A DNA stretch of 13,028 bases. Origin: a virus (taxonomy: Duplodnaviria > Heunggongvirae > Uroviricota > Caudoviricetes). Position numbers: made by a program. Positions within the stretch are counted from its first letter, which is position 1; each line of letters starts with the position of its first letter. Below, one piece after another: positions 6,001 to 9,000 of this stretch. The DNA is taken from IMG/VR virus record IMGVR_UViG_2734482780_000013, positions 1 through 13,028 of that record. One strand, 5' to 3'.

Positions 6001-9000
6001 GGCCTGGGAGACAGATCCAGGTAGCTCGTCATTAAAGCTCATACTGCTCTCGATGGCTGACAGAGCCGATGAATATAACCTCTGCTATCCGGAGATTGAA
6101 CATGACGGTATCAACAGAAGTTGACCACAACGAATACACAGGTAACGGTGTTACGACTTCATTCCCTTATACCTTTAGGATTTTCCAGGAATCTGATCTG
6201 GTAGTACAGGTGTTTGACCTTGATGAAAATATCGCTGTGCTGGCTCTTGATACTGATTACGCAGTCACTGGTGCGGGAGGGTACAACGGCGGTAATGTAA
6301 TTCTGTCGAAGGCGTTGGCTAACGGTTATCGGATTTCTATATCACGAGAGCTACCGGTTACACAGGAAACTGATCTGCGCAATCAGGGTAAGTTTTTTGC
6401 TGAGGTGCATGAGGATGCGTTTGATAAGCTAACGATGTTGATTCAGCAGGTTCGCAGTTTGTTTAGCCTTGCGCTGCGTAAGCCATCAAGCATCGCGAAC
6501 TGGTACGACGCGCTAAACAACTATATCCGTAATCTTAGAGACCCACGAGATCCACAGGATGCGGCAACAAAAAATTATGTTGACAGTGTCGCCTATTATG
6601 TCGACAACCTTTTCAAAAGGACGCTAAGAGTTCCTGAAAGTTATGTTGATCAGATACCATCAAATGAAGAGAGAGCGAATAAAATTCTTGCTTTTAATGA
6701 TGTAGGGAGACCAATTGCCGTTTTGCCAGAATCAGGCTCGGCTTCAGATGTTCTAATTGAGTTAGCAAACAATGGTGCAAAAATAACAGGATATAAAAAT
6801 AAGGGACCATTTGCGATTTTACAGACAGTAAAAGACAAATTAGATAGGATTTATTATGTAAGTGATTATGGTGTCTTACCAACAAATAGTGCCACCGTTA
6901 ACTCTACAAATTTGCAGAACATGCTGAACGATCTGTCTGGTAAGTCCACGATTACGAGAATTGTGTTTGCAGATCAGGGTACTATTTTTGTCAATGGGCC
7001 AATCATAGTCCCTAATAACACCGACATCGAAATTAAATCCGGCGTTACGGTTTCAGGCGCGTCTGGCAATCTGAGGCCGGTATTTGTAAGTGAGAAATGG
7101 GAATATGTTCTGTCAAACAGGACAGTCTCGGGAGGTTTTGCTTCTAACACATCCGATCTTGGTAACCGCTCAGATTATATTGGGATATGGGGAGGTGGGA
7201 CCGTTGACTACAACTATTCTACGGGAGGCACCTCGAATGGGATGGAAATGCATTGCATCTGCATTGCATCAGCAGTGCGGGTTAAATTAGGTGGTGGACT
7301 GGAAATTAAAGGTGCAAGAAAATATTCTTACCTTGTAGCCAACGTTCAATATCTTGATGCTCAAGGGCTTCGTTTTAATAACAACTCTGATGGACTTCAT
7401 CTACAGCCACCTATTGATTATGCCTACGTAAGGGATCTGTACGGTACGACTGGCGATGACATGTTTGCAATGACCGGAGGGGATTACCTTGCTTACGATT
7501 TAGGGTTGCGCGGAACGTTTAATCACATCGACGTTAAGGGCATTTATGGCATTAATTCTTTATGTGCAGTAAAGGTTGCAGGAAACAGCACAACACCTGT
7601 TCGCCACCTGAGCATAGATGGTGTTTATGGTAGCTACCAGCATAGTGTAATCAGGGTGTGGACAGATGGACCAAATCTGTCACAAACCAACGTGAAAACA
7701 CTGAATATCGACAATGTCGGTGGAATTGCTGGCGCTGGCTACAGAACCATTGAATTTAAAACAGTAGGGACTGGTACTGTTACCGTCGATAACGCTGTAA
7801 TCGGCGTTATCTCGGCTAACTACTCGGCAGCAGTTGTGCCTGTAGTGTCGGTAACCACTGGGACGGCTGGCTCATCAGCAGTTCGTGTCTACAATCTGGA
7901 ATGTCGGTGCCCTCGTGATGTCGCATATTTTCTGGAGGTAGGGGGTGATGGTGCTGGTGCCGACAATAGTCGCATAGACAATCTTAATGTTAATTTCGAT
8001 AAAACCTTACTTGCTACCAGTGTGTCGGACGCAGCCGGAGTTCGTATCACCCGTGGGCAGATAAACACCGTTATTGTTTCGGGGAATATTGATTTGGTTT
8101 CCGGGCAGGCGGTGATCAGAAAGTCTAGTGGTAAAGTAGAGAAAGTTATCTTCGACAAATTAACCCAATCTAATGGTTATAGCTTTATAAGTACTGGTGT
8201 TAACTACGACAATACCACTCCCTCGTTTGAGTTTATCGGTGGATTTTTCAACAACCCAGACAAATTAACAAGTCTGGTTAGCGGCTATTCTGTTGTTTGT
8301 GGTGGTAATGTTGTATCAAGTAAAACAGGTGAAGTTTTCACTACAACAACTGGCACTGTAAATATAAGTGGGCATATGCAGTATGGAAACTCCGCTATAC
8401 CATCCACACCTGTTTCAGGGGGCACTTGGGTGATTAAAGGGTTTGGTATTTTTGCGGATGTTGGCAACGCAACTGCAGTTAGAGGGAATCACTGTTACAA
8501 CACAAATACCAGCCTTGCGGGTGGGGTTGGCCCAGTTGTTGCGAATGGTTCAAGTTGGTTAAGTGTGGTTTAATCAATAACTGATGTGATTGGCACTATT
8601 GTTATATTTATTTATGTGTGATAATTTAAATATAAATATTTAAAATGGTGTCAATCATGCAGAATAGCATATATTTAGCAATATGGGTTTTTGGTTCTAT
8701 ATTATTTGTTTCTTTAATATTTTCCATGCCTTTATTCTCATTTATGGATAAAGGCGTGAAGCTGCATAGAAATATGCAATTAACAGGTGTAAGATATATA
8801 CTTGCATCAATGGTCGTCTTTGACCATATGGACTTTTTTTTGAATTTTACCATAAATAATAAATGGTGGTTCACATCATCATTTATGTACTATATAGGAA
8901 ATCTTGGGGTTTATTTTTTCTTCATGATTACTGCTTTTTTATTTTGGGGGAAAATAAGAGACTCAGAGCGTGTTGACTGGATTTCAATGTATAAGGGAAG

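Follow-up and report, generated by a model that had tools for sequence, protein, structure and literature searches.

The 13,028-nt window analysed here (IMG/VR virus record IMGVR_UViG_2734482780_000013, positions 1 to 13,028) contains a prophage remnant of ~13 kb, compared with a genome of 39.7 kb for phage epsilon15, in which an uninterrupted tailspike open reading frame (ORF) of 823 codons occupies positions 6102–8573 (+). The gene very probably encodes an intact and typical O-antigen tailspike of modular build, now isolated in an epsilon15-like prophage of Escherichia coli that suffered a recent deletion. As judged by sequence relatedness the tailspike is a mosaic, with three segments (anchor, neck and body) that have different closest relatives; base composition does not mark it as one. 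A contig that matches the window at 100% identity shows the element flanked by guaA on one side and by the core genes yfgI, yfgH, yfgG and pdeF on the other. A mosaic and intact 823-aa (amino acid) tailspike within a cryptic element had been claimed in the original prediction for this DNA, and these three points are borne out by the different relatives of the segments, by the unbroken reading frame, and by the podovirus-type character of a remnant that has no virion genes.

The reading frame extends from ATG 6102 to a stop codon at 8571–8573. By homology this ATG is the right start: MTVSTEVDH opens all homologues, and a GGAG motif is suitably placed upstream (Table 1). The sequence GGAGATT.AACATG is also found in intact relatives, and the ribosome-binding site is thus retained from the native tailspike leader. 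A longer form of the ORF, the longest possible, opens at 6069 and is a by-product of a deletion junction located directly upstream.

The anchor (aa 1–160) is highly conserved. DNA at 6085–6583 matches ~260 of 5426 complete E. coli genomes (the set used throughout) at 87–93% identity, and each match falls where a prophage tail-spike gene begins, in agreement with the conserved N-terminal block (here the first ~480 nt) of the original prediction. The N-terminal domain is 82–89% identical in aa sequence to its counterparts in phiV10, epsilon15 and PAS61, and among characterised proteins the phiV10 (85%) and epsilon15 (83%) tailspikes come closest; in tblastn searches identity is 63.8% to epsilon15 over aa 1–287 and 75.3% to phiV10 over aa 1–230. 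On this sequence evidence the anchor is a member of the epsilon15 gp20/phiV10 family of phage-binding domains. The region is also homologous to the N-terminal region of the solved tailspike Dpo31 (PDB 8ck1 and others; E 2e-26), and residues 1–247 of gp20 are described as a thin, flexible phage-binding arm (2026 preprint). An exhaustive search places the 165-aa anchor domain in 29,571 representative clusters, the best 150 of which are 70–94% identical over aa 1–164 and range in length from 175 to 979 aa. Because these 150 are separate 50%-identity clusters, one anchor carries very many different bodies; the Pfam domains of the bodies vary among the anchor-sharing homologues, and many PHROG families match only aa 1–~225.

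The anchor had originally been labelled T7 gp17-like, which is right at the superfamily level, although the window protein itself stays under the Pfam cut-off. A Pfam scan with the full-length tailspike gives no PF03906 match, the isolated anchor domain scores 16.7 bits (E 0.006) on PF03906, below the gathering threshold of 25.2 bits, and a pairwise phmmer comparison of the N-terminal domain with T7 gp17 is not significant. However, alignment by hhalign of a nine-sequence profile of epsilon15-type N-terminal domains with T7 gp17 residues 10–148 gives a probability of 95.6% (E 1e-8; ~130 columns), and two intermediates, Pseudomonas phage Shamal and Yersinia phage YeP5 (50% and 34% identical to the window anchor, respectively), score 41.5 and 41.8 bits on PF03906. 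A predicted structure of aa 1–230 has a predicted local distance difference test (pLDDT) score of 43.5, from an alignment that is too uniform, and its fold is unusable; the homology of the anchor is therefore set by sequence profiles instead.

Similarity to epsilon15-type spikes at the protein level runs to about aa 230, ending in SGSASDVLIELA. Within this stretch aa 161–229 form a flexible neck, which has low structure-model confidence and for which the best E. coli DNA match (6584–6771, aa 161–224) is only 79% identical. The body that follows has entirely different relatives. Its DNA (6772–8573; gene nt 671–2472) is 97.4% and 95.0% identical to sequences in E. coli FACU 2024 and PM7, the only two complete E. 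coli genomes that have this body. Both copies are 721-aa proteins in P22-like prophages, with a P22 head-binding domain at the N-terminus and the gene annotation 'phage head-binding domain'. The crossover maps to the few codons preceding GYKNKGPF at aa 230. The body is also 85–89% aa identical in PF18668-anchored proteins of 732–738 aa from Enterobacter hormaechei and others, and 38% identical to the lateral tail fibre of phage AugustePiccard. The occurrence of one body on epsilon15-type, P22-type and PF18668-type anchors bears out the predicted horizontal exchange of the receptor-binding module, and recombination at the neck/body boundary would shuttle bodies among these three phage types. 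The differences that separate one copy of the body from another fall in patches, a pattern suggestive of further exchange within the gene, and the ratio of non-synonymous to synonymous substitution rates (dN/dS) is 0.11–0.17, indicative of a purifying history.

The body is a right-handed parallel beta-helix according to a structure model of aa 150–823 (22 homologues; mean pLDDT 85.4, and >85 from about aa 250 on), and the beta-helix fold of the original prediction is thus recovered. The top Foldseek matches are the tailspikes CBA120 TSP3, HK620 and Sf6, and like such solved relatives the protein is presumably trimeric. The aspartates D430, D452 and D453 do not vary among 22 homologues, the most distant of which is 26% identical, and together with H475 they are spaced 22–23 residues apart, corresponding to one rung of the helix, as in GH28 enzymes. 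From the model and these motifs, the body is most probably a GH28-like glycosidase cleaving O-antigen via D430 and D452/D453.

The candidate receptor emerges from the two E. coli genomes with the P22-type copy. FACU 2024 (Egypt, sewage) and PM7 (Cuba, pig) are unrelated isolates with the prophage at different sites, and yet they share a wzx/wzy pair, located in an O-antigen cluster with rfbBDAC and manCB. Only six of the 5426 complete genomes have this pair (hits H152–H157; 38219–40637 of the FACU 2024 locus, L022; 3583218–3585636 of NZ_CP147009.1), and for a second genome picked at random the chance of falling in the same wzx/wzy group as the first is about 1 in 1000. The rare pair common to both body-carrying genomes supports a serogroup-specific O-antigen as the tailspike receptor, and the rfbBDAC and manCB genes indicate that this O-antigen probably contains rhamnose and mannose. 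Immediately downstream of the tailspike is an AT3-family acyltransferase gene whose nearest phage relative is O-acetyltransferase B (OacB) of phage Sf101 (29% identity), and which is probably an O-antigen-modifying conversion gene. O-antigen acyltransferases are the usual companions of O-antigen-specific spikes in serotype-converting phages such as phiV10, Sf6 and Sf101. Promoter-like sites are present at 8618–8703, in and around the acyltransferase start, and with the hairpin at the 3′ end they give the gene the layout of a self-contained conversion moron. In the related remnants of strains AST205 and FG31-1 the gene at the equivalent position is on the opposite strand.

Several points weigh against this account of the body. 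There is no glycosidase family and no GH28 match in the body by Pfam; a profile search of solved structures detects no beta-helix relative by sequence; the structure model is that of a monomer; fold and motif spacing are the only basis of the catalytic assignment; and the receptor link is drawn from FACU 2024 and PM7, carriers of the P22-type copy. A match of the body profile to solved structures was rejected as it involved only the PF18668 N-terminal domain brought in by the Enterobacter homologues. The body could bind its receptor or act otherwise (as a lyase, an esterase-bearing spike or a non-catalytic adhesin), or the receptor could be a capsule, and one database record does name the protein an endo-alpha-sialidase. 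However, this is unlikely given the invariant aspartates of NSDG and GDD and the histidine at GH28-like one-rung spacing; moreover, no endosialidase beta-propeller is seen in the structure model, the body is tied to one rare O-antigen cluster, and an O-antigen-type acyltransferase adjoins it.

The tailspike is joined to its present upstream neighbours by a deletion. Homology of the left arm to complete prophages ends at 6087 and that of the right arm starts at 6085, leaving a 3-nt CTA overlap. The left side is the 5′ remnant of a DnaT-like replication gene, which aligns with the full 816-nt gene of E. coli EC21 as far as 6087, beyond which the two diverge; its leftover ORF runs out of frame into the start of the tailspike. 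About 25 kb is missing, including the replication, packaging, head and tail genes and with them all virion genes. On the right side 17 nt of the native tailspike leader is kept, ribosome-binding site included, and the native upstream region of about 180 nt is lost. The lysis cassette forms the right end of the remnant, with gene lengths equal to those of intact relatives. Its position 3′ of the tailspike follows the epsilon15-like gene order, although the upstream tail genes of that order are seen only in relatives (loci L006 and L021).

The second of these relatives, a contig from Escherichia fergusonii, establishes the order of events. There the same 823-aa gene is preceded by six large virion-type genes, with the same acyltransferase and lysis cassette after it, and the mosaic is therefore older than the deletion. 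The N-terminal domain and neck of the two copies are 100% identical in DNA, and the right arm as a whole (6085–11866) is 97.7% identical. The holins and acyltransferase are 99.7% identical whereas the endolysin is only 92% and the DUF2514 spanin-like gene 94% identical (dN/dS 0.42; 10630–11738), such that the lysis cassette is itself a recombination patchwork. Many E. coli assemblies with 99.97–100% identity to the window share its deletion junction but have further left-arm deletions; one (L018) is without the equivalent of window 3094–4222 and another (L020) without that of 546–4255. Carriers of the element include the assemblies GCA_000819245.1, GCA_002324845.1, GCA_043676575.1, SRR2239636 and SRR14272525. 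Near-identical carriers with differing left-arm deletions show that the remnant is still decaying on a short time scale.

In the history that best fits these observations, the intact tailspike is that of an epsilon15/phiV10-like temperate podovirus in which aa 1–160 would dock the spike on the tail hub and the beta-helix of aa 230–823 would bind a specific O-antigen. The fusion of anchor and body was made in a working phage, and a later microhomology deletion of ~25 kb, in an E. coli lineage with the prophage between guaA and yfgI, brought the early-right operon up against the tailspike, the O-antigen acyltransferase and the lysis genes. The only candidate transcription unit upstream since the deletion is the immunity/early region (4642–5962) with its PR-like promoter, from which we infer transcriptional read-through into the tailspike; in an intact relative, a consensus scan of the upstream region reveals no candidate promoter between the tailspike and the gene before it. 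The tailspike here is most likely a recent passenger rather than a domesticated function, and it is possible that it acts as a donor of host-range modules by recombination.

A domesticated role as a free depolymerase, also raised in the original prediction, would have SOS induction produce a soluble tailspike that is released by lysis and acts on the O-antigen or biofilm of neighbouring cells, or as a decoy. The tailspike, its ribosome-binding site and the whole lysis cassette are indeed full-length, the junction is just 17 nt 5′ of the ATG and after cro and a small gene that have a PR-like promoter, and the right arm is intact in the many assemblies that share the junction while the left arm decays further. 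Nevertheless, such a role is very unlikely. A terminator-like hairpin follows cro and no antiterminator is identified, and the native region upstream of the tailspike is gone. The carriers are nearly identical, leaving little time for decay, and the search for junction-sharing loci used the exact tailspike protein and is biased toward intact copies, so that an intact right arm is no evidence of selection. With the P22-type copies as outgroup, 13 synonymous and 8 non-synonymous substitutions fall on the cryptic branch, compared with 12 and 5 on that of E. fergusonii, showing no lineage-specific constraint. A more elaborate proposal is that the deletion rewired the right arm to the repressor-controlled early-right operon, creating an SOS-inducible, lysis-released O-antigen depolymerase device that selection retains. 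If true, the persistence of the right arm through several left-arm deletions would be selection and the lysis would be altruistic, but this too appears highly improbable. Contrary to the passenger reading, selection rather than recency could also account for the persistence of identical intact copies through at least four states of decay.

Base composition was the ground on which the tailspike had first been read as a mosaic, with a GC-normal anchor joined to an AT-rich body (GC, guanine plus cytosine), as if the body had been brought in from a low-GC donor. The GC content is 45.1% at 6102–6649 and 43.7% at 6650–8573, a gap that is equalled or exceeded in 3158 of 5000 codon shuffles within the gene (63%). 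Most of the body shares the composition of the anchor, with 45.2% GC at 7051–8573. A local dip to 35–39% GC (third-codon-position GC, GC3, of 0.21–0.29) does span the neck/body boundary at about 6580–6940, but it is only marginal, its depth (minimum 0.346 in 240 nt) being reached by 246 of the shuffles (5%). The nearest relatives of the body are from E. coli, E. fergusonii and Enterobacter. A low-GC donor for the whole body is ruled out by the near-equal GC of anchor and body and by the shuffles, and the model is barely tenable in any form. Composition of the whole gene is near uniform, the outcome that the original prediction had itself set against a GC-normal adaptor and an AT-rich body. The AT-richness noted from ~6650 holds for 6660–6900 (35.3% GC; GC3 0.21) and not for the body as a whole. 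Nor is the first ~500 nt of ordinary composition, since the N-terminal part is itself off host composition; the gene overall is 44% GC and its phage neighbours 47–54%. The truly AT-rich gene of the neighbourhood is the acyltransferase and not the tailspike. The Gly/Asn/Thr/Val-rich repeats ascribed to the body are correct as a residue enrichment (Gly, Asn, Thr, Val and Ser together make up 49.8% of the body and 35.1% of the N-terminal part) but not as sequence repeats, as a tandem-repeat search of the tailspike finds nothing meaningful and any periodicity is structural only.

A tailocin-like remnant, the other role suggested originally, has no more in its favour than the co-occurrence of tailspike and lysis genes, and can be given virtually no credence: it is ruled out by gene content, as the interval from guaA to yfgI lacks tube, sheath, baseplate and other tail genes, and the remnant stems from a podovirus, a phage type with a short tail.

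Table 1. Features of the tailspike gene and of the surrounding prophage remnant, in window coordinates.
Feature	Position	Strand	Remarks
Early-left operon: DUF1382, MT-A70 methyltransferase, DndB/DGQHR-like gene, PerC, recT, yqaJ nuclease			Integrase also in element
CI-like repressor, 194 aa	4642–5226	−	
PR-like promoter	5327–5355		
cro-like gene	5381–5611		
Terminator-like hairpin	5633–5652		3′ of cro-like gene
Small gene	5762–5962		After cro-like gene and hairpin
DnaT-like replication gene, 5′ remnant	5978–6087	+	About 37 codons; cut by deletion
Deletion junction	6085–6087		3-nt CTA microhomology; from homology arms to complete prophages
Ribosome-binding site GGAG	6091–6094	+	7 nt 5′ of ATG; read from sequence
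Tailspike aa 1–160, virion-binding anchor of epsilon15 gp20/phiV10 type	6102–6581	+	Assigned by sequence homology
Tailspike aa 161–229, divergent neck ending in SGSASDVLIELA	6582–6788	+	AT-rich; GC3 about 0.29
Tailspike aa 230–823, receptor-binding/enzymatic body	6789–8573	+	Predicted beta-helix and C-terminal beta domain
Candidate active site D430 (NSDG), D452-D453 (GDD), H475	7389–7526	+	Conservation and motif spacing
AT3-family acyltransferase	8645–9781	+	Pfam PF01757, E 3e-22; 33% GC
Bidirectional terminator-like perfect hairpin	9785–9805		Directly 3′ of acyltransferase stop; closes tailspike–acyltransferase unit
Lysis cassette: two holins, GH19 endolysin, DUF2514 spanin-like protein	9941–11738	+	Full-length genes

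Several other features of the element are apparent. The CI-like repressor has an HTH_3 domain at aa 106–147 and a weak YdaS-like helix-turn-helix (HTH) match at aa 21–61, and it may contain two DNA-binding modules without the usual peptidase S24 domain. The DndB/DGQHR-domain gene (836–1939, −; 37.9% GC) adjoins the MT-A70 methyltransferase gene (192–965), is present in EC21 and GPEC403-625 and absent in AST205 and FG31-1, and looks like a moron or possible defence cargo. The window also has a 527-bp deletion of its own at 2363–2368, with a 6-nt overlap, relative to the near-identical locus L019 and the intact relative L007; it removes an AlpA-like HTH gene and shortens recT from 340 to 257 aa.

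The site between guaA and yfgI is occupied by other members of the family. Strains AST205 (L003), AF56 (L017) and FG31-1 (L004) contain independently deleted remnants with different junctions, two of them within replication protein P; one remnant keeps the small terminase gene and a tail-protein fragment, and in two of the three a full tail-spike ORF survives, with another body. These independent deletions were dropped as evidence of selection on the tailspike, as the hits had been ranked by similarity to a tailspike-containing query. The H55 locus, at first taken for a short element, is in fact two prophages in tandem. GPEC403-625 (L016) has two prophages of the family one after the other at the guaA site; an endosialidase-type (K1 capsule) tailspike and its lysis cassette close the first, and the integrase of the second comes directly next.

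Among known systems the closest are epsilon15 gp20 and phiV10 (Uetakevirus), which share the phage-binding domain (82–85% over aa 1–164; 64–75% over aa 1–230/287) and the gene order tailspike, O-antigen modification gene, holins and endolysin; epsilon15-type relatives in E. coli are prophages at the same guaA/yfgI site. The window copy differs in lying in a remnant without virion genes, in having a body whose sequence shows no relationship past about aa 290, and in the absence of the petal/esterase domain of epsilon15 (823 aa compared with 1070 aa for gp20). The tailspikes of P22, Sf6 and HK620 have the same plan of anchor, linker and beta-helix endoglycosidase, catalysis being predicted for the window spike, and the P22 family includes the same body (95–97% DNA identity) on the P22 head-binding domain in FACU 2024 and PM7. 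However, the window anchor is not a P22 head-binding domain, and the solved P22, Sf6 and HK620 bodies are only 10–13% identical to the window body. The N-terminal domain of T7 gp17 (PF03906) is a remote homologue with the same role, attachment of a fibre to the tail, although it precedes a coiled-coil fibre and tip domain in T7 and a beta-helix spike in the window. GH28 polygalacturonases and pectin-lyase-like enzymes are 12–13% identical to the body, and the expected substrate in the window is O-antigen and not pectin.

The modular exchange of tailspike bodies, and the retention of conversion and lysis genes by defective prophages, are textbook phenomena. This tailspike provides a clean natural case in which one beta-helix body is carried on three unrelated anchors and the crossover is mapped to a few codons, and by profile homology its epsilon15-type anchor is a diverged T7 gp17 N-terminal domain. 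The body belongs to a family without Pfam annotation or a solved relative that is linked to a rare rhamnose/mannose-type O-antigen cluster of E. coli, and the two together constitute a testable enzyme–substrate pair.

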